From assembly GCA_000004695.1 (NCBI GenBank), contig CM000153.2, positions 5,312,001 to 5,376,000 on the forward strand: DNA of 64,000 nt, read 5' to 3'. The notes beneath the pieces were generated by a model. That model had not been told where the DNA came from, ran no database searches, and saw only the letters and a program-made list of their open reading frames with translations. Shown in pieces: positions 3,241 to 61,705 of this stretch (within the stretch, counting starts at the first letter, position 1; the number at the start of each line of letters is the position of its first letter). Position numbers and translations under genes: made by a program. This DNA is from Dictyostelium discoideum. Lineage: Eukaryota.

Positions 3241-4431
3241 TCATTTATTATAATAATTATTTAGTGAGTTTATAAGCATTTCATTTGTAATTATATTTTC
3301 AATTGAATCAGATTTAGAACAATGATTTGATTCCGAAATTGATTTATTTGATAATAATAAAAGTTGTGAGAAAGAATTTTGATATCTTGTATATTCAATT
3401 TGAATTGGTAATAGCTTAATACAAGATTGGAAATTTGAAGATTGAATTAATGAAAACCATTCAATATATTCAACTTTTTCACAATTGAATTGTGATCCTA
3501 ATATATTATTAATATTCTCAATTTGTAATGGTTTTTCAACTCCAATATTGATAATATTAAAGCAACGATGTTGTTCTTGTATGTAGCTTTCAATATTAAT
3601 TAGACAATTTGAAATTGTTGTTGATAATGATGAAATTGGGGATGTTAAAAATGAGAATTCTATATTTGGATATGACTTGATTTCAATACATGATTGTAGA
3701 TATAATTGAACATAATCATTTGGATTTGAGAAAATTGAAGGGGTTCTTAATATAATTGTATTCAAATTGAATTTATCAGAAGCTTGTTTTAATAAATGTT
3801 CAGAGACTGCTTTAATTTGTAATGAACCATTTGAAAGTTGAGAAATTTTATCAACTGGTATTAAGGTTTCAAAATCTACAGTACTACTACTATTATTTCT
3901 ACCTAAATTAACATATAATGAAGATATCATTAAAATTTCTTTTATACCATTAGTGATTGAAAATTTAATAATTTCCTTTACAGTTTCGATTTTATATGAT
4001 TCATTTATATAGGTTGAATTTGTTGATTCTACTGCATCACTATCTTGATTAATAATTATTGAATTTACATTATTTGAAAGTATATTCAATTCATCAATTG
4101 GTAAACCAAAGTTATTCTTTGATGAATCACCAAAATAAACATGAATCTTTGAAATTTCAAATTCACTTAATTGTTCATAAAGTTTATATTGTTTAAAACT
4201 ATTTAAAATTTCATCATTTGAATTAATAGAATTAATTCTATCTTTTAATATATAATAAATATTTGAACAATTTGAATCTTTAACTAAATTAAATAATAAA
4301 TGAGTTCTTAAAATTCCAATTGAGCCAATTAATAAAATATTTTTGTTATTATTATCTAATTTTTGATGATGATTTTCATTGTTATTATTATTATTAATAT
4401 CTAATTTAATTTGATTCTCCCAAAATAGAAT
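3241..4431 (-). pseudogene. Detached 3' portion of the minus-strand PKS gene: C-terminal thioester-reductase (R, NAD-binding_4/SDR-type) release domain, separated from the ACP by a transposon insertion
   Basis: Reading frame open from 4431 to the stop at 3241; encodes ILFWENQIKLDINNNN..KNILLIGSIGILRTHLLFNL (TGxTGFLG-type Rossmann motif of terminal R domains). It joins in-frame to ...KYIAGGD at 7798 when the transposon plus one TSD copy is removed. Confidence 0.65.
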
Positions 4432-4436
4432 ATCAC

Positions 4437-4582
4437 TGTTGTAGGGAATTTTCCATAAAATTTCACTACAGTAGCGTAGTGAATTTTATTATTTAATTTC
4501 ACTACAGTAGCGTAGTGAAAAAAAAAAATCACTGACCTTAAATTTTTTTTTTTTTCAAAAAACAAATAAAGTTTATTAAATT
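4437..4582. repeat. Left terminal inverted repeat of the transposon (contains a twice-repeated near-palindromic TTCACTACAGTAGCGTAGTGAA motif)
   Basis: Reverse-complement match to 7652..7797 with only ~2 mismatches over 146 bp. Confidence 0.9.
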
Positions 4583-4639
4583 GAAATTTTATTTTTTGTT
4601 TTAATTATTATTTTATTTATTTTTATTATAATTATTGTT

Positions 4640-4672
<33 letters not shown>

Positions 4673-4813
4673 CAATTTTTTTTTTTTAAATTTTTTTCAA
4701 TTTTTATTTGTTTATTAAATTGTAATTTTATTTTTTGTTTTAATTATTATTTTATTTATTATTATTGTTAATTTTTTTTTTTTTTCAATTTTTTTTTTTT
4801 TAATTTATTTTTA

Positions 4814-6373
4814 TTAATTTATTTTTATTAACTCCCTGAGTTGTTCAATTGCTTGATTTACCATATCACTGTAAACACTGCACACAATTGAATTTTTTCT
4901 AGCTTTGTTACCTCTGGTGCATTTGATGTTTTTGCATTTTCCTTTGTATACAAAAAAGTCCAAATATAATTCGTTTTCTATTACAGTTTTTACACAATGT
5001 TGGTGAAATTGTTTTGATTTTAAGTGGAATGTTGGTAACATCATATTTGGATTTTTAACGATTAAAGCATCACCACTATTGACATATAGTACTTTGGGGG
5101 CTTTTTGGAGGAATTTAGTCAAATTTTCCTCTGAATCTAACTAATCTTCATTGCCATATTCAATGGATAAATTTTTTAAGAGTTGTATCGAATATATTAA
5201 TTAAGCGATCATTCTTTTTTTTTGAAATTTTTTTTTAATCAGATTTAGCAATTTTTTTTTTTTATCAAGTTTTTTCAATTTTTAATAAGTAATATTTTTT
5301 TTTATTTTTAATTATTTGTGTTAACAAATGTAATTTTTTTTTATTGATTTCAACACTTTGTTTTTATTTAATAATTTCCCCATACCCCCTTCTATTAATG
5401 CAACCAAATCAAGTTCTAATTTTTGTGTCCTTGTTGACTTTGTTTTTGCAACTTTTTTTGAAGGTATCACATTAACGATTTTTCCTATTGATGGTGATTT
5501 GGAAGGTGATTTAAATGGTGATTTAAATGGTGAATTGGAAGGTGATTTAAATGGTGAATTGGAAGGTGAAATGGATGGTGATTTGGAAGGTAATTTAAAT
5601 GGTGATTTGGAAGGTGATTTAAATGGTGATTTAAATGGTGAATTGGAAGGTGAAATGGATGTTGATTTGAGAGGTGATTTGGATGTTGATTTGAGAGGTG
5701 ATTTGGATGGTTTAGAATGTGATTTTAAAGGAGGTTTATTAACAATTGGTATCTTATGAGGACGGCCTCTGAGACGTTTAACAGTTGTTACTATACCACT
5801 ACCAGATTGTGGTATAGTATATGATGGTATTATTTGCACTTGAGGTATTGGTGGTACTATTTCTTTTAAATTCATATCCTTTCTCAAACAATTCATTAAA
5901 TTTGGCGCTGTTGGATTATTATTTAAAAATGGGAGTATTTCTTCTTGTTCCATTTCATTATTGAGTTTGTGTTGAAATGGATTATCGTTAATGATAGGTG
6001 GAATATTTGATGGATTGTTAAGAGCATCTTCCAAAACCCTAAATGGATCATTTTGTGTTACCAATTGATGCAAGTTGAAATTGGATAAATCCTTACCAAG
6101 ATTTTTAATAAACTGAACCAGAAATTCAATAACTTTCCCATCATTATTTAAATAAAGACCAGAAGTAAAAGAATCAATATCTTTTTGTATGTTTGGCGAT
6201 GTTCTAAAAATATCAACTGTTGATTGTTTATAAAGAACCAACTTGTTACCTCCTACAAAACCAGAGTATAAACCTTTTTTTTGAAGGCTATTGATTCCAT
6301 CTTCCAAAAATTCAAGTTTATAAAGTTGTTTAGTGTCTTCCTGTATTACCTTATGAATTTTACACAAAATCAA
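4814..6373 (-). CDS. Additional transposon-internal ORFs (350 aa with RGRP AT-hook and SPxK repeats; 102 aa Cys-rich)
   Basis: ORFs 5321..6373 and 4814..5122 lie on the same strand as the integrase fragments inside the TIR-bounded element; function unknown. Confidence 0.35.
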
Positions 6374-6443
6374 TATTTTCTATTAGAATTAAATATAAAA
6401 TTTGTTAATTATTACTGTTTCATATATTATTAATCTTTATGTT

Positions 6444-7287
6444 TTAATTACTTACATTATTTTTTTTAATTTCTAGAAAGAGTACAGTATCACCAACTTT
6501 CAATCCCTTTGGTGGTTTTGAATTCCATTGATTTTGGTAACTTGTGAGATTTTCAAGAATAATAGCTGTTATTTCTTCTTTTGAAACATCTGAAACACCA
6601 ATTGATTGAGAGTCTTGTTCTGATTGCACATTAATAAACAAAGGTACAATACCAACAGCTTGAGATGGTGTCATTTTAATTGTTCTTGTTTTTGTATTAT
6701 TGTAATCATACAAAGCTTGTTTTAATAGTTCAGAAAGAGACCTAGAAGTACCATCAAGAAAACTAAAATTTATTTATAAATGATTAATTAATAAACATAT
6801 CGATAATTTATATTGTTCAAAATATCATACTCTTGTTGTTTTAATTTTGAGATCCTCTCCTTGATAGTTCGATTCAATCTTTCTACCATACCTTGAGTTG
6901 TTGGTGTACGAGGAGCTCCATGTGCTGACTTGGAGCCTGGAAAAAGTTTTAGGAATTCTTTTTGGACTTTGTTTTTAAATTCACGTCCATTATCGCAGTG
7001 CCATACTTTCACAGAGTTTTAATATAAAAGTTACAAAACATCATATAAAAAATGATTGATACCAAACCTTTTATTCTATTTCGTTGGCAAATGTCACACG
7101 TATCTACTGCATCAGATACAAAAGAATACAATCCCATATTATAATATTTAGTCTTGTAGTTCCCATAGGTTGCATCTCTTCCTATATGACCTTTATGCAT
7201 TTCTTCCCAGAGTGATACCATTCTATAATCATTAATTACTTCTAAACACACTTCTTTTGATATATTTCTATCTCCGCCACAATTCAT
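6444..7287 (-). pseudogene. Transposon integrase-like ORF fragments (HHCC zinc finger, DDE core second Asp and Glu, C-terminal part) split over three frames
   Basis: 7287..7009 has HKGH...CDICQRN (HHCC). 7012..6788 has WHCDNGREF...HGAPRTPTTQGMVERLNRTIKE (second D and E of DD35E). No first catalytic Asp block is found between them, so the copy is probably deleted or degenerate. Confidence 0.7.
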
Positions 7288-7651
7288 GACTTTTTTTTCA
7301 ATTCTAAATAATTTTTCTTTTCTGTTTCTGTTTTTTATTGGTCAGAATTTAAAAAATGATTGTGTTATGGTAAGGAAAAATATTTACTCATCATGTAAAA
7401 ATTTATAATTTTTATGTTTAGTATTTTCAAAATTATTATCTTCAATAAATTTTAAATAATTTATCTTGTTTCATTTTGGGAAAATGAAAATAAAAAAAAA
7501 AAAAAAAAAAAAAAAAGTTTTGTTGGGGAAAAAAAAAAAAAATTTTGGCGCAAAAAAAAAAAAAAAAAATAAAATAAAAAAAAAAAAAAATAAAATAAAA
7601 AAAAAAAAATAAAAAAACTTAAATAGAACTAATAATCAAATAAAAGATAAT

Positions 7652-7797
7652 AATTTAATAAACTTTATTTGTTTTTTGAAAAAAAAAAAAATTTAGGGTC
7701 AGTGATTTTTTTTTTTCACTACGCTACTGTAGTGAAATTAAATAATAAAATTCACTACGCTACTGTAGTGAAATTTTATTGAAAATTCCCTACAACA
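7652..7797. repeat. Right terminal inverted repeat of the transposon
   Basis: Reverse complement of 4437..4582. Confidence 0.9.
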
Positions 7798-10700
7798 ATC
7801 ACCACCTGCAATATATTTATATTCAGTTTTATCATTTGGATCATTTTTTGTTGTTGTTGTTGTTTTTGCTGTTATTGGTAATAATTTTTCATCCATTTCT
7901 TTTTTCTTTTTATCTAATGAATCATTTATAATTTGATAAACCATACCAATTGAATTTGATTGAATTTGTTGAATTGTAATAAGATGTGGAGACCATTCTT
8001 TATCGACCCAATTCTTTAATTGTACTGTAATTAATGAATCAGCACCATAGTTTATCATTTTAATATTTGTATTAATTTTTGATGGATCAATTGAAAGAAG
8101 TTCAGAAACTTTGTTTAAAAATTTATTTTTTACATTTGTTGATGATGATGATTGATTGGTATCATTTTCCATTGATATTGAATTATCAACATTAATTGGA
8201 TTTAAAATGAAATCAAATTTTTGATGAAGTTTTTGTTTAAAACTTTTGAATAATGGCCAATTGAAATTATTAACAAATGCATTGGTTGGCATATTTGGAT
8301 TTTGAATTTGTAAATCTAAAGTACCCAATAATTGATTTGGTGATATTAATTCAACACCTTGACCACCTAGTACTGCTTCAACAAGTTTATGTCTTGAAAG
8401 ATAACCTCTATCACTTACACCACCAATGTTAATTGTAAATGATGGTAATCCAATTGATTTACGATATTGTGATAACGAATCCACTACACAACATGCTGAA
8501 ACATAACTACATTGATCAAATGAACCTAATACTGAAACTACTGATGATGCTAAAATGAAATTAATAATTTTCCAATCTCTTTTAATTGATAAATTATGTA
8601 AATTAACTGCACCAAACGTTTTTGCACTATGCGAAACATTTAAACTATTCATATCAATATCTTTAAGTTTTTTATTAATTTGTAAAGCTGCAAAATGAAA
8701 TATTGAATCAATATTTGTAATTGTTGGATTATCTTTTAAAACTTGATCAATTGTTTTATTAATTAAATTCCAATTACTAATATCACATTTTTTGAAATGA
8801 TATTTAATTTTATTGTTATTATTATTATTATTATTGTTGTTGTTATAATTCATTAAAAATTCTAATTCCCATTTTAATGATGATTTTGAAAGAATAATTA
8901 TATTTTCAACAGTTGAATTATATTTTGTTATCCATTTTAAAACTTCTAAAATTAAACCAGTTTGACCTGTAACCAATACATTTTTACCAAGATTTTTAAT
9001 TTTATAATCTGATTTTAATATTGAATAATCAATCATTGATTCTTTTTCAATTAATTTATCTATGATATCAGTATCATGTGAAATTACAATTTTACCAACA
9101 TGTTTTCTTTCTTTAATTGATTCAATTGATTTTTTAATATTTGAATTTGAAAATTCTGTAATTGGTATTAAAGCATTTAAAGTTTCATTTTCAATTGATT
9201 TTGAAATTGACTGTAATAATTTCTTAATTGTTGATTTTCCAACTTTTAAAATTTCAATACTATTATAACCAATATTATATCTATATCTACTATTATCAAT
9301 AAATTCATTTGGATTTAAATGAGTAGTTGTTAAATCTACAATTCTACCTTTTGGATTTAAACATTTAAAATTTGTATCCATAAATTCACTTGATAAAGTA
9401 TTAATAATTAAATCAACACCATGAGTTTCATAACCTAATTCAATTAATTTGTTTTTAATTTGTTTTTGATAATTTGTGTCTCTTGTTGAATAAATTCCAG
9501 TAATTAAATCACCATAGGTATTAATTAGATATTGTTTCTTTTCTTCTGATCCAACTGTAACAAATATTGGTGATGAATGATTATTTGATTTTAATATTTC
9601 CAATCCTGATAATCCAACACCACCAGATCCTGAATGAATTAATACTGATTCTTCATCTCTTAAATTACCAACATCATATAAACAATAAAGTGATGTTGAA
9701 TAAACTGCTGGAATTGAAGCTGCTTGAACATGTGTAATCTTTGATGGTTTATGACATGCTAATAATGAATCAATAATAATATGAGATGATGATGTTTCAT
9801 ATGCAATACCATAAACTTGATCACCAACTTTAAATTCTTTAGATGATTTAATTCCAACACGACTTACTACACCAGAAAAATCAAAACCAATACCAGCTTC
9901 ATTTACTTTTATCATTTCATTATATTTCAAATAATCTTTATAATTTATACCAGTTGCTTTAACTTTTACTTCAATTTCATATGGTTCTAAATCAATTTGT
10001 TTTGAATTTAATTGATATTCAAAATGTTCATCTAATTTTGAAACTAATTGATCTTGTTGTTTTGATAAATCATGATATGATTCAGATTTATAAGAATTCT
10101 TTAAATTTTTTAATTCTTTTTTATACATTTCAAAATAAACAGTACCACTATTTTTTATATAAAATTCTCTTTGAATATTATTTTTTGGATTAATTAAATA
10201 ATCAATGGTTTTGAATAAATCCAAATCATTTGTTAATGAATCTTTATCAAAATCCAATGTAAATAATTGTAAAGTTGGAATTTCATCAAAGTATCTTGCT
10301 GCACCTAAAACTGATGATGATAAATAATTACTTGATTGTGAATCACATGTAATTAAAACATGAGTACATTTTGATTTTAATTCATATAATTTTTGATTAA
10401 TTTGAACATATTCAAATGTTACTGATTTAAAGTTTTCCAATGTTAATTGTTCAATTGATTTAATAAAATAAATGATTGAATTATTTGTAATTGTTGTTGA
10501 TAATTTGTAAAATTCTTCAATTGTTGATACTTTTATTATTTTACAATTATTATAATGATTTTCAAATTTATTAATTAATTGTTGTTGTTGGAGTTGTTCA
10601 TCTTGATAACAATATAAAATTACTTGATCAAATGTGTTTATTGTTTTTGGTTGTAATTTTAATGATGGTTTTTGAGCTTGAATAATAATTGATTTAATAT

Positions 10701-10803
10701 CACTATCAGATATACTTGAAGATTTAATCATTATATCAGAATTGAAATTACAATTAACCAATAAGTTTTTCAATGATTCTTTATTATTTTCATTATTTAA
10801 TAG

Positions 10804-10868
<65 letters not shown>

Positions 10869-13800
10869 CATTTATTATTAAATAACCATTTGGTGTTAAA
10901 ATTTGATAAATTTGATTTAATGAATATTCAATATCTTTTGTTAAATTTGAAATATTTGAAACAATAATTAAATCATAATATGATGGATTTAATTTTTGTT
11001 TTTCTAATAATGAATTATCAACATCTAAACCTAATGAACGATAAAGAATACTTAAATAACCCTTATCTACTTTTGATAATTCTAATTTAGCATCTTTTAA
11101 AATTGATGAATTATTATCACTCCATGTATATTCAATATCAATTTCATAATGTGGATTTTCTTCGAGTAATGAATTGATTTCATTCAATAATAAAGTTGAT
11201 TTTGATAAATTATTACCACCAAATTCTAAAATTCTAAATTCCATCTTTCTATTAATTAATGGTTTAATAGTTTCTATAACAACATTTGGAATTAATAAAC
11301 CATCATCTACTTGATTATTTTGATAAATTGATTTAAATTCTAATGGTGATTGAATTTGTGAATCTTTTGATTGAAGATATGGTGTATAAATAAAATCAGA
11401 TGGAGTTTCAATTAATAATGGATCTTTAACTGGTGTTAATGATTTAACTACCAAGTTATCAACTTCAATGATAACAGTACCATCTTCTAACATAACAACG
11501 ATAGATGAAGAGAGTAAATCATCAGATGGAGATGATTTTAAAGTTGAATAAATAAAGATACTTGAATGTTCATCTCTATTTTTTGGAATATTTGAAGCAT
11601 AATATCTTAAACCTTCAACTTTATCTGTTACAATTTTACAATTCTTTTGAATGTATAGAATAACGGTACCATGGAAACAAGCATCAATGAGTGGACAATT
11701 GAAAAATGATTGTTCATCATGAAAGTTTTCAGGTAATTCTAAGGATATTTCAGTTAATGAACAATTATCACCAATATAACATTCAACTACTTTACTAAAA
11801 ATACCATAAAAGTTTGCACCCAATTGAGTTTTCATTAGTGAATAAAATTCATCCCATGGAATTGATGATAAATTACATTTTGTTTGTTTAATATCTTGAA
11901 TATCCAATTTTTGTTTTTCTTCATGATAATTATCATTACTATTTAAGTGGAAATTAGAATTTGAAGTATTTATCCATTGATTATTCATTTCATCTTTTAA
12001 ATGAAATTGTGCTCTATATTCACTTTTACCAGTTTGATAAACATTTGTTTGTAAACATTGCCCAATACCATCGGTTAATACAAATGGTACCTTAAATTCA
12101 ATTGAATTAATTGTTAAATCTTGATTTGGATATAATTTAAATATATTATCAATATAACCTGTTCCTGGGAAATAACATTTATCAGATACATTATGACCTT
12201 TTAAATATTTGAATGCATCTTTTCCAGTATCAATTATTGTTTGATATGATTTAATAAATGGATTTGAATCTTGCATTGAATTACCGAGAATTGAAATTGG
12301 TGGTCCAATTAAATTATTTTTATGTTCAATTGATTTATTTAACCAATAATGTTGATCATCCCATTGATATAATGGTAAATTAAAATTACTAATAGCCTCA
12401 ATATTGCTATTTATATTATTAAATTGACATTTAAAATTAATATCATAAGCATCATCACAAAATAATTGTGAAATTGATTTTTGAAATTCTTCAACATCAT
12501 TCTTTTTCTTGTGAAGTGTTGAATAAACTGATATTGATTCACCATTTCTAAAGTATTGTGATTGTTTTGGAATCATTTGTTTTAAATAAAATGATAATGT
12601 TGGATGTGGTGCAATTTCAATGAATACAATATTTGAACCGATTTGATTATCTTCAATATGTTTATATAAATTTGAAATTGTTTGAGTGAATGAAACTGGT
12701 TTTGAAATATTATCAAAGAAATATTCAGAATCAAAAATAGTTGATTCATTAAATAAATTTGATGTAACTGTTGAAAATGTTGGAATAACAGGTTGACTTG
12801 ATTGAATATTTAAATTTAAAATATCATCTTTAATTATATTTTGACTACTTGTATGAAAACTTGATAAACTTCCTAACATTGCTGAGAATATTTCTTTTTC
12901 TTTTAATTCTTTTGAAATTTCATTTAAAATTTGTTCATTACCTGCGATTACAATTGATGATGGTGAATTATAACATGCAATTTCAATAGTTGGGTAACGT
13001 GACATATAGTTAGTTTTATATTCATCTGAACTAATGTTAATTGATAACATTTTACCTGACCCATTTGTTCTTATTTGTAATGTTGATCTATGATAAATTA
13101 AATAACATAATTGGTCAATATCAATCATACCTGAACAATAAGCAGTTGTTACTTCACCAAGACTATGACCCAACATAAATGATGCTTTTATACCCCAATG
13201 TTTATAAAGTTCATATAATGATACTTGAATAATTACAGTTGATGGTTGTGCCATTGTTTGTTCATGAACTGAACATTTATCACTATCTTGAATTGCTCTT
13301 AATTTCTCTAAAATTGAATATCCAAAATAATTTTTCATTTTATTATCTAGCATATCCATCGAATTTCTAAATACTTTTTCATTTTTATATAATTCTAATG
13401 CCATTGTATTATATTGTGATCCTTGACCACAAAATACAAATACAGTTATTGGATTATTATTTTTATTTGTAATTGTAATATTTGAAGAAGTACTACTTGA
13501 AGTTTGATATTTAACTTGATTTTCAACATTATTAAAATCATTCCAATCTTTTGCAACAATTACTGATCTTTGATAAAGTGATGTTGATTTATTATAAATT
13601 TGATTTTTAACAAATTCTTCAAAACTATATTGTGATTCATATTCTTTATTTTCAATAATTAATGATTGATATTTTTTTAATGATTCAACTGAATTTGCTG
13701 AAAATGGAATTAAATAATTATTTATTTTTATATTATTATGATTATGATTATGATTATGATTATTATTATGATTATTTATATTATTATTTATAGTATTATA

Positions 13801-14489
13801 ATTAAATTGAGATAATACTAAACAACAATTTGAACCAGTTGCACCAAAATTATTAACAACCATTGAAGTATTTTTAAATTTATTAAATGGAATTGGTTCA
13901 GTTACAACTTTTAAATTCCATTCTTTAAATTTAATTGCTGGATTTGGTGTTTTAAAATGAATATTTGGTGCAAAACATTTGTTTTTATACATTAAACAAC
14001 ATTTGATTAATGAAGCAATACCAGAAGCAGCTTCACAATGACCAATATTTGATTTAAATGATCCAATTAATAATGGAGTATCAGTTGAACGAGTATCTTT
14101 AAAAACTTTTGAAATACCTTCAACTTCAATTGGATCACCAGTTGGTGTACCAGTGCCATGTGCTTCAACATAATCTATATCAGATGGTTTAACAGTTCCA
14201 TTGGTTGATTGAATTGCATTTTTTAAATTTTCAGATTGTGAAATTGATGATGGTGAATAGAAATTTGATTTATCAGAATAACCAATACCATCAACATTTG
14301 CACTTGCACCATTTATTGTACAATAAATTCTATTACCATCTTTAATTGCATCTTTTAAATTCTTTAAAACCACAACACCAATACATTCACTTCTTACATA
14401 ACCATCAGCTGATGCATCAAATGATTTACATCTACCATTTGATTTACTTAATATATTCAATGAAGAATATGCTTTAAAAAAGTAAGAGT
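7738..14489 (-). CDS. Type I iterative polyketide synthase, exon 2 (KS C-part, AT, DH, ER, KR, ACP); the reading frame now runs into the transposon TIR and stops at 7738
   Basis: Motifs GHSLGE (AT), HNVSDKCYFPG (DH), HSGSGGVG (ER), [10 protein letters not shown] (KR) and YGADSL (ACP). (CAA)26 poly-Gln tract at 10803..10867. The last 23 codons (DCCREFSIKFHYSSVVNFII*) are encoded by transposon TIR sequence. Confidence 0.85.
10803..10867 (-). repeat. (CAA)n microsatellite encoding a 26-Gln tract inside the minus-strand PKS
   Basis: (TTG)21 on the plus strand; the paralogous position in the plus-strand PKS reads NEQQPNNENNENNE. Confidence 0.9.
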
Positions 14490-14566
14490 CTAATAAAATT
14501 AAAAAATTTAATTAATAAATAAATATAAAGATAAAATTAAAAAAACTATTAAAAAAAAATACATAC

Positions 14567-15230
14567 CAAGTAATATATTAACACCACCAACAATTGACAT
14601 TTTTGATTTTTTATTTTTGATTGAATCATATCCTAATGCGATTGCATTTAAAGATGATGAACATGCAGTATCTAGAGTTATTGAATTACCATGAAGATCA
14701 TAACAATAGGAGATTCTATTTGAAATCGCATGATTTAAACTTGAGAATACATTTGATTTTACTTCATTTTTATTGATATTATGATAGTCACTTTCGGTAC
14801 AACCAATGAAAACCGAAGTATCTGTACCTTTGATTGAAATTGGATCAATTAATGAATCTTCTAATGCTTCCCATGTACATTTTAATAATAATCTTTGAAT
14901 TGGGTCAATGGTTGGTGCTTCATTTGGATTAATACCAAAAAAGAGTGGATCAAATGATTTAACTTCATCCAATGGTAATAGTCCTGAATAATTATTTGCA
15001 ATTTCATGATTTTTGAAAAAGTTATCATTGAATCTTTCTGATGTTTTCACTACACCATCGAAACCATTTATTAAATTATTCCATAATGTTTGAGGTGTAT
15101 TGTTTCTTTCATTTTCAATACTTCCACTTGGTAATCTAAAGCCAACACCAACAATTGCAACTAAATTTTCTTCAACATGTTTATCATCAACTTGTAAAAT
15201 TTCTGCTTTATTTATTTTATTTTGTTTCAT
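14567..15230 (-). CDS. Same PKS, exon 1 (KS N-terminus; ATG = complement of 15228..15230). Intron 14490..14566 (77 nt, GTATGT..AG, phase 1)
   Basis: [12 protein letters not shown]...[13 protein letters not shown]...[35 protein letters not shown] then GTATGT donor. Exon 2 resumes D-SYFFKAYSSLNILSKSNGRCKSFD, parallel to the plus-strand paralog. Confidence 0.75.
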
Positions 15231-15837: not shown

Positions 15838-16049
15838 TTCCTATAAATATCTCATTATTTTTTTTTTTGATTAATAAATTGATTATATTTTAGTAATGTT
15901 TAAAATTTTAAATATTTTTTTTAAAAAAAAAAAAAAAAAAAAACAAAAATTATTCATCTTTTATTTAACAAATTTAAACATTTTAAATATTTTTTTAAAA
16001 AAAAAAAAAATTAATTTTTTTTGGATGGATTTAAAAAAAAATTTTAAAT

Positions 16050-16886
16050 TTAAAAATATTTTTTTTTTATTCTTAATAATGGAGTATTATTATTAATATT
16101 AATAATTCCATCAGTACCATTTTCATAAGAAATTTTAAAAATTCCATTTGTATAGTAATAGAAACCTTCGTCGAATTTTAAAAAAAATACAAGACCAGTT
16201 AATATATTTGAAAATTCTACGAAATAATTTGCAGAATATTTCAATTGACCAACTGAAATTGGATTTAAATTAAAAGAGAAAACATTTACAAAATCATTTA
16301 AAGAATTTGTTTTTTCTTGATATATTAAAACACCATTTTCAGTTTCACTTTCAATGATTCTATATATTTTTGTATTATTTGTTAATTTTGGAGATTGACC
16401 AATTTCATTGCCAATTTCAATTGGAAAATAACAAGATAGAAAAGTGAAACAAGCATCAACCAAGTATTTTTTATTCTTAAATTCCATTACATTGCAATAA
16501 TGAAGTCCGATATTTGGGTATACCAAATTCTCTCCACCGTCAATTGCTTTAATTAATTGAACTTTTATTCCAAATTCTTGTAATAACATACCAAATAATA
16601 TATTATGGTTTAAACAAATATTGCCAACCTCTTTCTCTATCATTGTTTCAACAATATAATCCATATCGATTGTTGGTCCATCTTTTAAAACGTCAATATT
16701 ATTATATGGAAAATGTTCTGCAAATTTCACCATTAACAATTCAAAATCATCCAAACAATTTAATTGAAAATCAATTTCTAAATTTAATTTTGGTAATATA
16801 ATTTCTTTAAAATTATATTTTTTATTTGCTAATTTTAATTCTTCATAACTGAAATGTAAAAAATAGTCTTTGTCATTAATTTCCAT
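16050..16886 (-). CDS. Arylamine N-acetyltransferase (NAT)-fold protein, 278 aa, in the spacer between the divergent PKS genes
   Basis: Catalytic-triad geometry matches NATs: Cys91 in VGNICLNHNILFG (cf. RGGYCFExN), His128 in GLHYCNV, Asp143 in YLVDACF (cf. YIVDAGFG). Cys-to-His spacing is 37 and His-to-Asp is 15, as in human and bacterial NATs. Confidence 0.65.
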   Translation of the reverse strand: MEINDKDYFLHFSYEELKLANKKYNFKEIILPKLNLEIDFQLNCLDDFELLMVKFAEHFPYNNIDVLKDGPTIDMDYIVETMIEKEVGNICLNHNILFGMLLQEFGIKVQLIKAIDGGENLVYPNIGLHYCNVMEFKNKKYLVDACFTFLSCYFPIEIGNEIGQSPKLTNNTKIYRIIESETENGVLIYQEKTNSLNDFVNVFSFNLNPISVGQLKYSANYFVEFSNILTGLVFFLKFDEGFYYYTNGIFKISYENGTDGIININNNTPLLRIKKKYF

Positions 16887-18550: not shown

Positions 18551-19238
18551 ATGGATAATAGTTATTTAAATAATCCCCAATTTGATATTAATAATGGTAA
18601 TAAAGAAGTTACAGATGATGATAATAATAAAAATAATCAAGATAATTTAGTAGCAATTGTTGGTGTTGGTTTTAGATTACCAAGTGGTGAAAATGAAAGA
18701 AATAATACACCTCAAGCATTATGGAATAATTTAATAAATGGTTTCGATGGTGTAGTGAAAACATCGGAAAGATTCAATGATAACTTTTTCAAAAATCATG
18801 AAATAGCAAATAACTATTCAGGACTATTACCATTGGATGAAGTTAAATCATTTGATCCACTCTTTTTTGGTATTACTCCTAATGAAGCACAAACTATAGA
18901 TCCTCATCAAAGATTATTATTAAAATGTACATGGGAAGCATTAGAAGATTCATTAATTGATCCAATATCAATCAAAGGTACTGATACTTCTGTTTTCATT
19001 GGCTCTTCAACAAATGATTATCTTACATTAAATAGAAATGAAGTAAAATCAAATGTGTTTGGTAGTATGGCTCATTCAATTGCAAATAGAGTATCCTATT
19101 GTTATGATCTTCATGGTAATTCAATAACTCTAGATACTGCATGTTCATCATCTTTAAATGCAATCGCATTAGGATATGATTCAATCAAAAATAAAAAATC
19201 AAAAATGTCAATTGTTGGTGGTGTTAATATATTACTTG
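18551..19238 (+). CDS. Type I iterative PKS (plus strand), exon 1; intron 19239..19324 (GTATGT..AG, phase 1)
   Basis: [10 protein letters not shown]...[20 protein letters not shown]...GGVNILL then GTATGT donor; paralogous to minus-strand exon 1. Confidence 0.8.
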
Positions 19239-19324
19239 GTATGTATTATTTTTAAAATTTTTTATTATATTTTATTTTTTACAAAATTATTAATTAAAAT
19301 TATATTATTATTTTTTTTTAAAAG

Positions 19325-22300
19325 ACCCATATCCATATAAGGCATTCTCAATTTTGAATATGTTAAGTAAATCAAATGGTAGATGTAAATCATTTGATGC
19401 ATCAGCTGATGGATTTGTTAGAGGTGAATGTATTGGTGTTGTTATTTTAAAGAATTTAAAAGATGCAATTAAAGATGGTAATAGAATTTATTGTACAATA
19501 AATGGTGCAAGTGCAAATGTTGATGGTATTGGTTATTCTGATAAATCAAATTTCTATTCACCATCATCAATTTCACAATCTGAAAATTTAAAAAATGCAA
19601 TTCAATCAACCAATGGAACTGTTAAACCATCTGATATAGATTATGTTGAAGCACATGGCACTGGTACACCAAATGGTGATCCTGTAGAAACCGAAGGTAT
19701 ATCAAAAGTTTTTAAAGATACTCGTTCAACTGATACTCCATTATTAATTGGATCATTTAAATCAAATATTGGTCATTGTGAAGCTGCTTCTGGTATTGCT
19801 TCATTAATCAAATGTTGTTTAATGTATAAAAATAAATGTTTTGCACCAAATATTCATTTTAAAACACCAAATCCAGCAATTAAATTTAAAGAATGGAATT
19901 TAAAAGTTGTAACTGAACCAATTCCATTTAATGAAAATAAAAATACTTCAATGATTATTAATAACTTTGGTGTTACTGGTTCAAATTGTTGTTTAGTATT
20001 ATCTCAATTTAATAATACAAATAAACAAAAACAACAAATGAAAACAAAAATAAATAATTATTTAATTCCATTTTCAGCAAATTCAGTTGAATCATTAAAA
20101 AAATATCAATCATTAATTATAAATAGTAAAGAAAATGAATTAAAATATAGTTTTGAAGAATTTGTTAAAAACCAAGTATTTATTAAACCAACATCACTTT
20201 ATCAAAGATCTGTAATTGTTGCAAAAGATTGGAATGATTTTAATAATGTTGAAAATCAAGTTAAATATCAAACTTCAAGTAGTACTTCTTCAAATATTAC
20301 AATTACAAATAAAAATAATAATCCAATAACTGTATTTGTATTTTGTGGTCAAGGATCACAATATAATACAATGGCATTAGAATTATATAAAAATGAAAAA
20401 GTATTTAGAAATTCGATGGATATGCTAGATAATAAAATGAAAAATTATTTTGGATATTCAATTTTAGAGAAATTAAGAGCAATTCAAGATAGTGATAAAC
20501 GTTCAGTTCATGAACAAACAATGGCACAACCATCAACTGTAATTATTCAAGTATCATTATATGAACTTTATAAACATTGGGGTATAAAAGCATCATTTAT
20601 GTTGGGTCATAGTCTTGGTGAAGTAACAACTGCTTATTGTTCAGGTATGATTGATATTGACCAATTATGTTATTTAATTTATCATAGATCAACATTACAA
20701 ATAAGAACAAATGGGTTAGGTAAAATGTTATCAATTAACATTAGTTCAGATGAATATAAAACTAACTATATGTCACGTTATCCAACCATTGAAATTGCAT
20801 GTTATAATTCACCATCATCAATTGTAATCGCAGGTAATGAACAAATTTTAAATGAAATTTCAAAAGAATTAAAAGAAAAAGAAATTTTCTCAGCAATGTT
20901 AGGAAGTTTATCAAGTTTTCATACAAGTAGTCAAAATATAATTAAAGATGATATTTTAAATTTAAATATCCAATCAAGTCAACCTGTTATTCCAACATTT
21001 TCAACAGTTACATCAAATTTATTTAATGAATCAACTATTTTTGATTCTGAATATTTCTTTGATAATATTTCAAAACCAGTTTCATTCACTCAAACAATTT
21101 CAAATTTATATAAACATATTGAAGATAATCAAATCGGTTCAAATATTGTATTCATTGAAATTGCACCACATCCAACATTATCATTTTATTTAAAACAAAT
21201 GATTCCAAAACAATCACAATACTTTAGAAATGGTGAATCAATATCAGTTTATTCAACACTTCATAAGAAAAAGAATGATGTTGAAGAATTTCAAAAATCA
21301 ATTTCACAATTATTTTGTGATGATGCTTATGATATTAATTTTAAATGTCAATTTAATAATATAAATAGCAATATTGAGGCTATTAGTAATTTTAATTTAC
21401 CATTATATCAATGGGATGATCAACATTATTGGTTAAATAAATCAATTGAACATAAAAATAATTTAATTGGACCACCAATTTCAATTCTCGGTAATTCAAT
21501 GCAAGATTCAAATCCATTTATTAAATCATATCAAACAATAATTGATACTGGAAAAGATGCATTCAAATATTTAAAAGGTCATAATGTATCTGATAAATGT
21601 TATTTCCCAGGTGCAGGTTATATTGATAATCTTTTAAAATTATATCCAAATCAAGATTTAACAATTAATTCAATTGAATTTAAAACACCTTTAATATTAT
21701 CAGATGATAATGGTCAATTTTTACAAACAAATGTTTATCAAACTGGTAAAAGTGATTATAGAGCTCAATTTCATTTTAAAGATAATAGAACAAATGTATG
21801 GGTTCAAACATGTACTGCTAATTTTCAATTATATAATAATGGTAAAGTTGATAAATTAAATTTAGAAGAAATTAAATCAACAAAATGTAATTTATCATCA
21901 ATACCATGGGATAAATTTTATCCACATATAAAAAATAGAACTGGTTTAAACTATAAAGACAAATTTCAAAATACAATTGAATGCTATCTTGGTGATAATT
22001 GTTCATTAACTGAAATATCATTAGAATTACCAGAAAACTTTCATGATCAAGAATCATTTTTTAATACACCAATTTTAGATATTTGCTTCCATGGTTCAAT
22101 TGTTTTAATTAAGGATAATTGTAAACTTGTTTTGGATAAAATTGATGGTTTTAAATTATATACATCAAACATTCCAAAAAATAGATTTGATCATTTAAGT
22201 ATTTTTGTATATACAACTATGAAATCAACAAAATCAAATTCATACAATTCAACATACACAGTAATGTTAGAAGATGGTACTGTTATACTTGAAGTTGAAA

Positions 22301-25300
22301 ATTTAATATGTACATCATTAACACCAGTTAAAGATCCATTATTAATTGAAATTCCAACTGATATGTATTATACTCCATATCTTCAATCAAAAGATTCACA
22401 AATTCAATCACCATTAGAATTTAAATCAATTTATCAAAACAATCAAGATAATGATAGCTTATTAATTCCAAATGTTGTTTTAGAAACAATTAAACCATTA
22501 ATTAATGAGCAAATGGAATTTAGAATTTTAGAATTTGGTGGTAATAATTTATCAAATTCAACTTTATTATTGAATTCAATCAATTCATTACTTGAAGAAA
22601 ATCCACATTATGAAATTGATATTGAATATACATGGAGTGATAATAATTCATCAATTTTAAAAGATGCTAAATTAGAATTATCAAAAGTAGATAAAGGTTA
22701 TTTAAGTATTCTTTATCGTTCATTAGGTTTAGATGTTGATAATTCATTATTAGAAAAACAAAAATTAAATCCATCATATTATGATTTAATTATTGTTTCA
22801 AATATTTCAAATTTAACAAAAGATATTAAATATTCATTAAATCAAATTTATCAAATTTTAACACCAAATGGTAATTTAATAATAAATGAACAACAACCAA
22901 ACAATGAAAATAATGAAAATAATGAAGATTCATTGAAAAACTTATTGGTTAATTGTAATTTCAATTCTGATATAATGATGAAATCTTCAAGTGTATCTGA
23001 TAGTGATATTAAATCAATTATTATTCAAGCTCAAAAACCATCATTAAAATTACAACCAAAAACAATAAACACTTTTGATCAAGTCATTTTATATTGTAAT
23101 CAAGATGAACAATTCCAACAACAACAACAATTAATTAATAAATTTGAAAGTCATTATAATAATAATTGTAAAATAATAAAAGTATCAACAATTGAAGAAT
23201 TTTATAAATTATCAACAACAATTACAAATAATTCAATCATTTATTTTATAAAATCAATTGAACAATTAACATTGGAAAACTTTAAATCAATAACATTTGA
23301 ATATGTTCAAATTAATCAAAAATTATATGAATTTAAATCAAAATGTACTCACGTTTTAATTACATATGATTCTCAATCAAGTAATTATTTATCATCATCA
23401 ATTTTAGGTGCAGCAAGATACTTTGATGAAATTCCAACTTTACAATTATTTACATTTGATTTTGATAAAGATTCATTAATTAATTTAGACATTTCGGTTA
23501 TAGATCATTTGATAGATCCAAAACAAAATACATTGATTGAATTCTTTATTAAAAAAAATGGTAAAGTTTATTTTGAAAGATTTAAAAAAGGTTTAAAGAA
23601 AAATTCTTTTAAATCAGAATCATATCATCAAATTACAAATGAACAAGAAATTTTAATTTCAAAATTAGATGAAAATTTAGATTATCAATTAAAATCAAAA
23701 GATTCAATTTTAAAACCATATGATATTGAAGTAGAAATTAAAGCAACTGGTTTAAATTATAAAGATTATTTAGTATATAGTGGTTTAATAAAATTAAAAG
23801 GTGATAGTGTTGATTTTGGTCTTGATTTTTCTGGTAGAGTTAGTCGTGTTGGAATTAAATCATCAAAAGAATTTAAAGTTGGTGATGAAGTTTATGGTAT
23901 TGGACAATCAACATCATCATCTCATATTATTATTGATTCAATGCATGCATGTCATAAACCATCAAAGATTACACATGTTCAAGCAGCTTCAATTCCAGCA
24001 GTTTATGCAACTTCAATTCATTCTTTATATAATATTGGTAATTTAAGAGAAGGAGAATCAATTTTAATTCATTCAGGATCTGGTGGTGTTGGATTATCAG
24101 CATTGGAAATATTAAAATCAAATAATCATTCATCTCCAATATTTGTTACAGTTGGATCAGAAGAAAAGAAACAATATCTAATTAATACCTATGGTAATTT
24201 AATCACTGGAATTTATTCAACAAGAGATACAAATTATCAAAAACAAATTAAAAACAAATTAATTGAATTAGGTTATGAAACTCATGGTGTTGATTTAATT
24301 ATTAATACTTTATCAAGTGAATTTATGGATAGCAATTTCAAATGTTTAAATCCAGAAGGTAGAATTGTAGATTTAACAATTACTCATTTAAATCCAAATG
24401 AATTTATTGATAATAATAAATTTAAATATAATTTTGGTTATCATAATATTGAATTATATTATTGTGAAAAGCCAACAATTAAGAAACTATTACAGTCAAT
24501 TTCAAAATCAATTGAAAATAATACATTAAATTATTTAATTCCAATTACAGAATTTTCAAATTCAAATATTAAAAAAGCAATTGAATACATTAATGAACGT
24601 AAACATGTTGGAAAAATTGTAATTTCTCATGATACAGATATTACTAATAAATTAATTGAAAATCAACCTAAAATTGATTACTCTTTATTGAAATCAAATT
24701 ATAAAATTAAAAATCTTGGTAAAAATGTATTGGTTACAGGTCAAACTGGTCTAATTTTAGATATTATAAATTGGATTATGAAATATAATTCAACTGTTGA
24801 AAATATAATTATTCTTTCAAAATCATCAATGAAATGGGAAATGGAATTTTTAATTAACAACAATAAGACAAAAATTAAATTCTATTATAAAAGATGTGAT
24901 ATTGGTGGTGATTCAGATTCAATTAATAAAACATTTGATAAATTGTTTACAGAAAATCCAACAATTACAAACATTGATTCAATATTCCATTTTGCAGTTG
25001 TACAAATTACAAGAAAAGTAAAAGATATTGATATGAAATCATTAAATATTTCACATGATGCAAAAACAATTGGTGCAATTAATTTACATAATCAATCAAT
25101 TAAAAGAGATTGGAAATTAAGTAATTTCATATTAGCATCTTCAATTCTTTCAAAAGTTGGTTCATTAGATCAATGTGGATATGTTTCAGCATGTTGTGTA
25201 CTTGACTCATTTTCAAAATATCGTTTATCTATTGGATTACCTGCATTATCAATTAATATTGGTGCTATGGGTGGAAGTGGAATGGTTGCAAGAAGTGAAC

Positions 25301-25779
25301 TTGTTGAAACTGTACTTAATGGTCAAGGTTATAATTTAACCTCAACAAACCAACTATTAGGTACAATTGATTTATTAATTCAAAATCCTGGTCAAGAATC
25401 AAATAATTTAATGGTTGGTAATTTTAATTTCCCAGTTTTTAATAATTTCAAACAAAAGATTCATCAAAAATTTGATTTTATTTTTAATGCTCTTGATTCA
25501 AACTCTGAAAATGGTGATGGTAGTAATATCAAAAATTCAACAAATATTAAAGATAAATTTTTAAACAAAGTATCAGAATTTCTTTCAATTGATTCATCTA
25601 AAATTAATAATGATATTAAATTAATGAATTATGGTGCTGATTCATTAATTACTGTTCAATTAAAGAATTGGGTTGATAAAGAATGGTCTCCAAATTTAAT
25701 TACAATTCATCAAATTCAATCAAATTCAATTGGTATGGTTTGTCAAATTATAAATGATAATTTTGAAAAAAAAAAATAA
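19325..25779 (+). CDS. Type I iterative PKS (plus strand), exon 2: KS-AT-DH-ER-KR-ACP, ending 26 residues after the ACP with no release domain (total 2380 aa)
   Basis: Same motif order as the minus-strand PKS. Ends ...LMNYGADSLITVQLKNWVDKEWSPNLITIHQIQSNSIGMVCQIINDNFEKKK*. Confidence 0.85.
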
Positions 25780-60643: not shown

Positions 60644-61500
60644 TTTGTATGTTTTATGTTACAAAAAGTTTTATTAAAAATAAAAAAAAAAAAAATAAAA
60701 AAAAAAATAAAATAAAAAAAACTTTGTGAATAAAAAAAAAATTAGATTTTCTGTAAAAAAAAAAAAAAAAAAATTACAAAGAAAAAAAAAAAAAATTTAA
60801 AAAAAAAAAAAAAAATTCTAAACCCTGGTTGGGGAAATAACGAATGAAAAAAAAAAAAAAAAAAAATGGTTTGAGCCTGTAATTGTTGACAAGTTTTATG
60901 ATCGATTTGGAAACTAAACAATTAAACATTTAATTATCTAATTTCCTCTTTTTTTTTTTTTCTTTTTTTTTTTTTTTGGTGAAATTTTGTTTAGAAAAAT
61001 AAAAATATCCTTTTTGTGTGGGCAATAGATTATTTTGAATTGTTTATTTATATTTTTATTTTTTTTATTTTCATTTTTATTTTTATTTTTTTTTTTTTTT
61101 TTGTGGAAATGAAAAAAAAGGTAATAAAAATAAAAATTTTGTGTGTATATATGATATTAAGTTTTAGTTTTTTTAACATACCATTATTTTTTATAGTTTT
61201 TTTTTTTTTTCTTTAAAAAAAATATATATAAATAATAAATAAATAATAATTAAATAATGGGAAAAAAAAAAAAAAACTTTGTTTCTTTTATAACAATGAA
61301 TTTAAAACAATTTTAATTTATGCTTTTTTTTTTTTTTTTTTTAATTTAAAAAAAAAATTTTAAAAAAAAATTTGGAAAATTTTTCCAGCCCGGTTTAATT
61401 TTCCCCCGGGGTTTTTTTTTTTAAATTTAAAATTTTTAAAATTTTTTTTTTTTTTTGAGCGTTTATTTTAAACAGAAAAAATGGTGATTTGACTCTGTTT

Positions 61501-61561
<61 letters not shown>

Positions 61562-61705
61562 AAACAAATTCCAAAACTTTTTTTTTTTTTTTTATAAACT
61601 TTTTTTTTCTTTTTTTTTTTTTTTTTTTTATTTTTATTTTTTTTTTTTATTTCATAATTAAAAATCTTTGAGTTTTGAAGTTAATTATTTATTTTAAACC
61701 AGCCC

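Follow-up and report, generated by a model that had tools for sequence, protein, structure and literature searches.

The 64,000-nt stretch of Dictyostelium discoideum DNA analysed here (contig CM000153.2, positions 5,312,001 to 5,376,000; "the window") contains a polyketide synthase (PKS) gene, very probably pks24 (DDB_G0287119), whose reading frame is broken by a DNA transposon. We put at about 0.92 the probability that in strain AX4 the pks24 gene was interrupted by a defective Tdd-4 copy, which entered the linker that separates the acyl carrier protein (ACP) and NAD_binding_4 domains, duplicated GTGAT and truncated the product, and that this insertion is derived and recent. The window represents chromosome 4 of AX4, because its open reading frames (ORFs) are identical to the AX4 proteins DDB_G0287091, DDB_G0287093, DDB_G0287121 and PheRS-alpha; the 278-aa form of DDB_G0287121 is recorded for AX4 only. 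The host gene is assigned to pks24 because the length of its truncated ORF equals the 2,471 aa published for AX4 pks24 (Sucgang et al., 2011, Table S6, where pks25, DDB_G0287095, is listed with 2,380 aa).

The inserted element and its empty site in other genomes

The element occupies positions 4437-7797 (3,361 bp), with its transposase gene on the minus strand, in the same orientation as pks24. As the sequence-only reading of this DNA had described, it is bounded by near-perfect terminal inverted repeats (TIRs) of 146 nt, one at 4437-4582 on the plus strand (the 3' end of the element) and the other at 7652-7797 on the minus strand (its 5' end). Both open with TGTTGTAGGG, and the first is identical to the reverse complement of the second at 144 of 146 positions; a looser inverted repeat spans 269 nt at 84%. 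The ends read TGTTG, fitting the pattern TGTNR, and the 47-nt terminus of the element occurs at only two sites in the window, namely the TIRs, with none expected by chance. Immediately outside lie two direct copies of ATCAC, at 4432-4436 on the R-domain side (GTGAT in the orientation of pks24) and at 7798-7802 on the ACP side. Deleting 4437-7802 joins ...KYIAGGD to ILFWENQIKLD... in frame, and the reconstructed pks24 ORF has 2,848 codons, with a 77-nt intron after nt 664; the fusion, the codon count and the sum 664+6692+1191 given in the earlier reading are all correct. The insertion point falls right after codon 2452.

The orthologous locus was reached via a neighbouring gene in three other assemblies. 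In GCA_054883475.1 (D. discoideum, ACTFIT; locus L008) the flanks are 99.3% and 99.9% identical to the window and the called PKS has 2,848 aa, while GCA_054859385.1 (D. discoideum, ACTFIR; L014) and GCA_054859235.1 (D. cf. discoideum, ACTFIZ; L015) show ~95% and ~93% identity in the PKS, with called proteins of 2,843 and 2,849 aa, respectively. In all three the site is empty, GTGAT is present once and the PKS ORF runs through without a break. In ACTFIT, window positions 16206-7798 and 4436-1 align to adjoining segments, whose overlap is the 5 bp GTGAT and no more. Given three empty alleles with a single target copy, we therefore regard the empty state as ancestral and the ATCAC copies of AX4 as a true target-site duplication (TSD), as had been proposed, and the insertion itself is derived on this comparison. 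Three short Logan contigs (L009-L011) end 141 bp before the insertion site.

That the 3.4-kb segment might instead be a large intron, a normal part of the gene or an artefact of the AX4 assembly is scarcely credible in view of these alleles, each with exactly one target copy. The AX4 reference does seem locally flawed nearby, since positions 16013-16162 hold a cluster of 18 differences at which two other genomes are in agreement; however, misassembly would not make a target-site duplication, and the segment combines a perfect 5-bp duplication with 146-bp TIRs and integrase coding sequence, and has the borders TG...CA, not GT...AG. The claim of a transposon insertion rather than an intron is thus confirmed by three genomes in which the site is empty and the PKS ORF continuous. 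A different challenge is that the empty ACTFIT site reflects precise excision, the insertion being old and lost in that strain, which is possible in principle as Tdd-4 moves by cut and paste. We judge this very unlikely: an excised element usually leaves behind a footprint or both copies of its target, whereas ACTFIT has one GTGAT and a perfect ORF, and the same empty site in two diverged genomes (95% and 93% identity) points to the empty state as the ancestral one.

Family assignment and defects of the element

Tdd-4 is a cut-and-paste DNA transposon of D. discoideum that belongs to the Ginger2/TDD group and has a transposase resembling retroviral integrases, with H2C2 and DDE motifs; both TDD-4 and TDD-5 show 5-bp TSDs and TGTNR termini, and the Ginger2 group lacks both the GPY/F motif and the YPYY motif (Bao, Kapitonov & Jurka, 2010; PMC2836005). 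The TDD4 protein XP_629668, taken from the alignment in Additional file 1 of that paper, was used as the query. In tblastn, the query's residues 1-51, 150-211 and 211-256 are matched at 96-98% by window positions 7212-7060, 7012-6827 and 6761-6624, and the Tdd-4 ORF DDB_G0282919 (dictyBase label) is ~90-96% identical over the aligned segments. Together with the clear difference of TDD5, the match to XP_629668 identifies the element by sequence as a copy of Tdd-4, and the assignment made in the sequence-only reading holds. Further copies exist on three contigs of GCA_054883475.1 (L001, L012 and L013), with 94-98% DNA identity and the same termini. The window copy resembles Tdd-4 in host species, 5-bp TSD, TGTTG termini, long TIRs and the combination of H2C2 and integrase core; the sense-strand frames of the element contain neither a GPY/F nor a YPYY motif. 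A protein search with its integrase-like ORFs returned matches in Dictyostelium proteins only; a look-up of four element ORFs found no exact protein match, and a look-up of the AX4 Tdd-4 ORF P0004 found no contig encoding it.

Membership of another Ginger2/TDD family, such as Tdd-5 (AF298206) or an undescribed relative, was weighed as well. Tdd-5 shares the superfamily, the 5-bp TSD and the domain order and is similar in size, and termini alone cannot identify the family, as a different element at L001 8971 has the same 16-nt terminus TGTTGTAGGGAATTTT. However, the TDD5 protein is clearly different from TDD4, departing from it at many positions of the published alignment (HWDEMHKGHIGRDATYQKFKSMYFCTGMW...), and the tblastn match of the window to TDD4 is at 96-98%, while the TDD5-like proteins P0001 and P0005 are only 44-70% identical; we accordingly leave this alternative almost no weight. 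The sequence at L001 8971-9306 itself begins with the TGTTGTAGGGAATTTT terminus as in Tdd-4 and then diverges (~67% identity), and may be a Tdd-5-like relative.

The ends of the window copy are well preserved. The two mismatches between its TIRs reflect variants specific to each end: those of the 5' end are also seen in the 5' TIRs of L001 and L013, and the CCAT and CCTT variants of the 3' TIR recur in the 3' TIR of L012. Because other copies share these variants, they are best read as features of the family and not as decay. Tdd-4 TIRs were reportedly put at ~145 nt by Wells in 1999, and Table 2 of Bao et al. (PMC2836005) gives 260 nt. Two 23-nt subterminal repeats, TTTCACTACAGTAGCGTAGTGAA, lie in the 3' TIR at 4461-4483 and 4497-4519 (plus strand) and two in the 5' TIR at 7715-7737 and 7751-7773, each a palindrome with an 8-bp stem; the four copies in the window all fall within the TIRs, with none expected by chance, and the repeats are kept in other Tdd-4 copies. 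From their position and conservation, we consider them likely to be transposase-binding sites. The 5' TIR of L013 (L013 5642-5800) has three 36-bp units, each made of the 23-nt palindromic repeat and a 13-nt spacer, where the window TIR at 7652-7797 has two, so that copies differ in how many presumed binding sites they carry. To judge by these sequences, the ends of the window element look fully functional.

The same cannot be said of its coding part, which reads on the minus strand. Exon 1 (7388-7474, ATG at 7474), placed by alignment to L013 and the protein model P0019, is frameshifted by an 11-nt deletion, which the alignment to L013 resolves into 10 nt at 7463/7462 and 1 nt near 7456. The following exon (7068-7327, …HKGH…CDICQRNRIKG), to which TDD4 residues 1-51 map, carries the H2C2 zinc-binding motif (Pfam PF17921, Integrase_H2C2, E=3.4e-8, 33.9 bits, cutoff 25.5). 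A deletion junction then lies at 7012-7020, with the break at 7013/7012 and 2-bp CT microhomology, where TTAAAACTCT meets GTGAAAGTATGGCAC in the joined form TTATATTAAAACTCTGTGAAAGTATGGCACTGCG. Here 395 bp of the fuller copy L013 (L013 6474-6868) are absent from the window element, a stretch that takes in 25 nt from the end of one intron, all of the exon encoding the first catalytic Asp, the next intron and 66 nt of the exon after it. What remains of that catalytic-core exon (6831-7012, VKVWHCDNGREF…QGMVERLN…KLKQQ) is matched by TDD4 residues 150-211 at 97% and encodes the second Asp (HCDNGREF) and the Glu (MVERLN) of the DDE triad; Pfam scores it with rve_3 at 21.7 bits, under the cutoff of 26.5. 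TDD4 residues 52-149 (ITKDFAPIVDTEEYSRLVYDLTS to ...FGKP), which include LVYDLTS with the first catalytic Asp, have no tblastn match anywhere in the 64-kb window. The minus-strand integrase motifs noted earlier are thus present as regards H2C2, the second Asp and the Glu, and the first Asp of the DDE triad went with the 395-bp deletion; the incomplete core marks a deleted Tdd-4 copy and not a different family.

Past the catalytic core, an exon at 6456-6762 (DFLDGTSRSLSELLKQALYDYNNTKTRTIK…EIKKNN), delimited by reading its splice sites, is matched by TDD4 residues 211-256 and P0017 residues 90-191. It is followed by a large C-terminal exon at 5321-6379, in which an RGRP AT-hook core lies near 5770 and a KSP motif is repeated ten times at 5455-5742 with a 12-nt period, and by a last coding segment at 4814-5137 (…EENLTKFLQKAPKVLYVNSGDALIVKN…), to which P0009 residues 212-245 match by tblastn. 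The KSP repeats resemble SPKK-type minor-groove-binding motifs suited to AT-rich DNA, and in other Tdd-4 copies the C-terminal part is deleted to differing extents.

Because the first-Asp exon is deleted and exon 1 is frameshifted, the window copy is unable to encode an active transposase and is a non-autonomous element, incapable of moving by itself. In length, too, it departs from the reference element (3,361 versus 3,839 bp): the size had been thought to match the ~3.8 kb of Tdd-4, and this was mistaken, the element being 3.36 kb, internally deleted and disrupted in its transposase. Most of the missing length is accounted for by the 395-bp and 11-nt deletions, a TIR with one 36-bp unit fewer than in L013, and differences in homopolymers. 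The deletion map is that given by L013, which is itself interrupted further downstream; L001 is rearranged past the first-Asp exon and was unusable for defining the deletion, and L012 carries internal deletions of its own.

Four points weigh against the interpretation given at the outset, or against parts of it. A look-up of a 92-aa ORF diagnostic of the junction, in which AX4 DNA was not scanned, found no second copy with the same 395-bp deletion. The name pks24 comes from published lengths and from neighbouring DDB_G numbers; exact look-ups of the 2,848-aa and 2,471-aa proteins gave no match, and the PKS searches returned only matches shorter than ~1,250 aa, at 33-59% identity, from a protein collection that seemingly holds no long proteins. 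The binding-site role of the 23-nt repeats is drawn from position and conservation only. Finally, adding the 395 bp back gives 3,361 + 395 = 3,756 bp and not 3,839 bp, and the ~80 bp left are attributed, without itemisation, to homopolymer and repeat-number differences.

Origin and age of the insertion

Internally deleted derivatives of cut-and-paste elements keep their ends and binding sites and move by transposase supplied in trans. The window copy is like Ds, derived from Ac, and the deleted P elements, in that it would likewise be an internally deleted element with its ends kept and dependent on transposase in trans, and its junction shows short microhomology as in such non-autonomous derivatives. 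In the mechanism we propose, a full-length Tdd-4 would supply the transposase, which would bind the 23-nt subterminal repeats, and staggered insertion after codon 2452 duplicated the 5-bp target GTGAT. Either an already defective copy would have been mobilised in trans, or a full copy would have inserted and then been shortened by faulty gap repair. In AX4, 19 Tdd-4 ORFs are annotated; they are transcribed, and are strongly de-repressed in rblA mutants (PMC3386910).

Between these two routes we lean, to a modest degree, towards deletion before insertion, since deletion afterwards needs several events in a very short time. The alternative, in which a full-length autonomous Tdd-4 inserted and only then lost the 395 bp and the 11 nt at this site, for instance through excision and interrupted gap repair from the sister chromatid, is the less likely one, yet it deserves to be taken seriously. 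Short-microhomology junctions are typical of abortive gap repair in DNA transposons, and at the junction here the microhomology is just 2 bp long; moreover, the same deletion was seen in none of the four other copies examined. On the other hand, this route requires at least three events (the insertion, the 395-bp deletion and the 11-nt deletion) in a lineage whose flanks match those of an empty-site genome at 99.3-99.9%, and the missing donor is weak evidence given that only four other copies were inspected, all from a different strain. Unlike the case of Ds and the P-type derivatives, no donor copy was found for the window element, and movement in trans of an already deleted copy is therefore something that we only infer.

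The insertion is recent as well as derived, because it is absent from three genomes, one of which has flanks 99.3-99.9% identical to those in AX4. The detached 3' fragment of pks24 shows no differences from the intact ACTFIT allele over 1,194 nt, residues 1-2452 are identical in AX4 and the ACTFIT protein, and, if homopolymer runs and two small clusters of differences are set aside, there is one difference between the two genomes in ~12.6 kb. The absence of the element from a genome with matching flanks is direct evidence of very recent movement of Tdd-4.

This raises the question of what strain the matching genome represents. Among the assemblies, only ACTFIT (GCA_054883475.1) has proteins at the locus that are identical in sequence to those of AX4. 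According to the paper behind the assemblies, the wild isolates are diverged from AX4 and AX2-214 was also sequenced; since ACTFIT is near-identical to AX4 while the wild isolates of that paper diverged, GCA_054883475.1 is probably AX2-214. If so, the insertion either originated in the laboratory lineage derived from NC4 or was segregating there. We see an even chance that it arose within the laboratory history of the NC4-derived axenic strains.

Both clusters of differences that interrupt the near-identity with ACTFIT lie away from the insertion. Positions 16013-16162, at the 3' end of the arylamine N-acetyltransferase 4 gene DDB_G0287121, hold 18 differences from GCA_054883475.1 in 150 bp that are otherwise identical; the product has 278 aa in AX4 and 291 aa in ACTFIT and the more distant ACTFIZ, which agree. 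This cluster is probably a local error of the AX4 reference or a change private to AX4. The second, at 61358-61705, comprises ~25 substitutions relative to GCA_054883475.1 and is intergenic, between vatA and the PheRS-alpha gene, with the surrounding genes identical.

The truncated polyketide synthase and its detached domain

The upstream part of pks24 lies on the minus strand at 7798-15230, with exon 1 at 14567-15230, the intron at 14490-14566 and exon 2 running to 7798, and comprises codons 1-2452. In the reconstructed protein, Pfam places KS at residues 24-400, AT at 571-898, DH at 979-1242, MT at ~1338-1451, ER at 1724-2024 and KR at 2059-2247, and in both the reconstructed and the real 2,848-aa protein it finds NAD_binding_4 (59.8 bits, cutoff 20.1) at 2488-2690, after the ACP (ACP_SdgA_C) at 2332-2423. 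The intact allele thus has the same order, KS-AT-DH-MT-ER-KR-ACP followed by NAD_binding_4, as highly reducing iterative type I PKSs with a terminal reductase (R) domain. In AX4 the last domain is cut off: the ORF reads on from codon 2452 into the element for 19 transposon-encoded codons (CCREFSIKFHYSSVVNFII) and a stop (7738-7797 on the minus strand, stop at 7738-7740), so that KS-AT-DH-MT-ER-KR-ACP is left in an ORF of 2,471 aa with an expected C-terminus of ...KYIAGGDCCREFSIKFHYSSVVNFII. The detached part, at 3241-4436 on the minus strand, holds codons 2453-2848 and the stop, and still encodes the R-like NAD_binding_4 domain (63.7 bits).

Whether this domain is a release reductase, as the sequence-only reading assumed, is less clear. 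It matches the reductase family NAD_binding_4, aligns to the R domain of MxaA (PDB 4u7w) and is indeed detached past the ACP. Unlike canonical R domains, however, it is without TGxTGFLG and the catalytic Tyr-x3-Lys: compared with MxaA it has IGSIGILR for TGxTGFLG, so that the third Gly of the nucleotide-binding motif is missing, and NGSLQIK for GGYAQSK, in which Ser stands in the place of the catalytic Tyr and the Lys is retained. The loss of a domain past the ACP therefore stands, and the domain lost is one without the catalytic Tyr. The residues of IGSIGILR and NGSLQIK are found in all four genomes (AX4 and the three with the empty site), and the ratio of nonsynonymous to synonymous substitution rates (dN/dS) of the domain between strains is 0.24-0.32, which indicates purifying selection at the sequence level. 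As the changed motifs are conserved and dN/dS is low, we consider the domain functional in some way, though probably not as a canonical reductase.

The neighbouring gene pks25 offers a natural comparison. This divergent paralogue lies on the plus strand at 18551-25779, where one splice model yields a product of 2,380 aa, as published. Over 2,141 aa, exon 2 of pks25 shows 81% identity to pks24, and the promoter region is common to both genes. The pks25 protein ends 4 residues past the ACP (…QIINDNFEKKK*) and has no R-like domain; a remnant of one was considered downstream of pks25 and rejected, as none was found. Because pks25 ends naturally after its ACP, loss of the domain need not abolish product formation, and by analogy the truncation in AX4 may alter rather than abolish it. 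Knockouts of pks24 and pks25 made in AX2, with data mapped to AX4, revealed shared metabolite features that depend on pks24 and pks25; that study reports no release mechanism and mentions neither a transposon nor a pks24 truncation (PMC12625978).

The surroundings of pks24 and pks25 may represent a biosynthetic gene cluster. Just downstream of pks24 lie the tandem UPF0523 paralogues DDB_G0287091 and DDB_G0287093, at 1189-1680 and 2330-2800 on the minus strand, and in other genomes the UPF0523 pair is followed by a third copy, a P450 gene and a gene of the epimerase/dehydratase family. ARAGORN reported a 'tRNA-???' with a 4-nt anticodon at 947-1030 on the plus strand, which is probably a false positive in AT-rich DNA.

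Tdd-4 and its superfamily have already been described, and an element of this kind in the AX4 reference is nothing new. The new points are modest: that the insertion is polymorphic between strains, and that the reference pks24 ends in 19 transposon-encoded residues. The copy of Tdd-4 that moved into pks24, or was left there, is a defective one. The reference gene appears to be truncated by a transposon, its C-terminus likely mis-modelled, and domain predictions made on AX4 miss a domain that is conserved in other strains. If GCA_054883475.1 is AX2-214 and the insertion arose in the laboratory, a defective copy would have been carried into pks24 by Tdd-4 transposase in the course of a few decades, in the AX3/AX4 lineage, and the 2,471-aa reference pks24 would be a laboratory-born truncation of an enzyme that AX2 makes in its full 2,848-aa form. 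Comparisons of polyketides between AX2 and AX4, or the mapping of AX2 data to AX4 (as in PMC12625978), would then concern strains that differ at the pks24 locus and that could differ in pks24-dependent chemistry.

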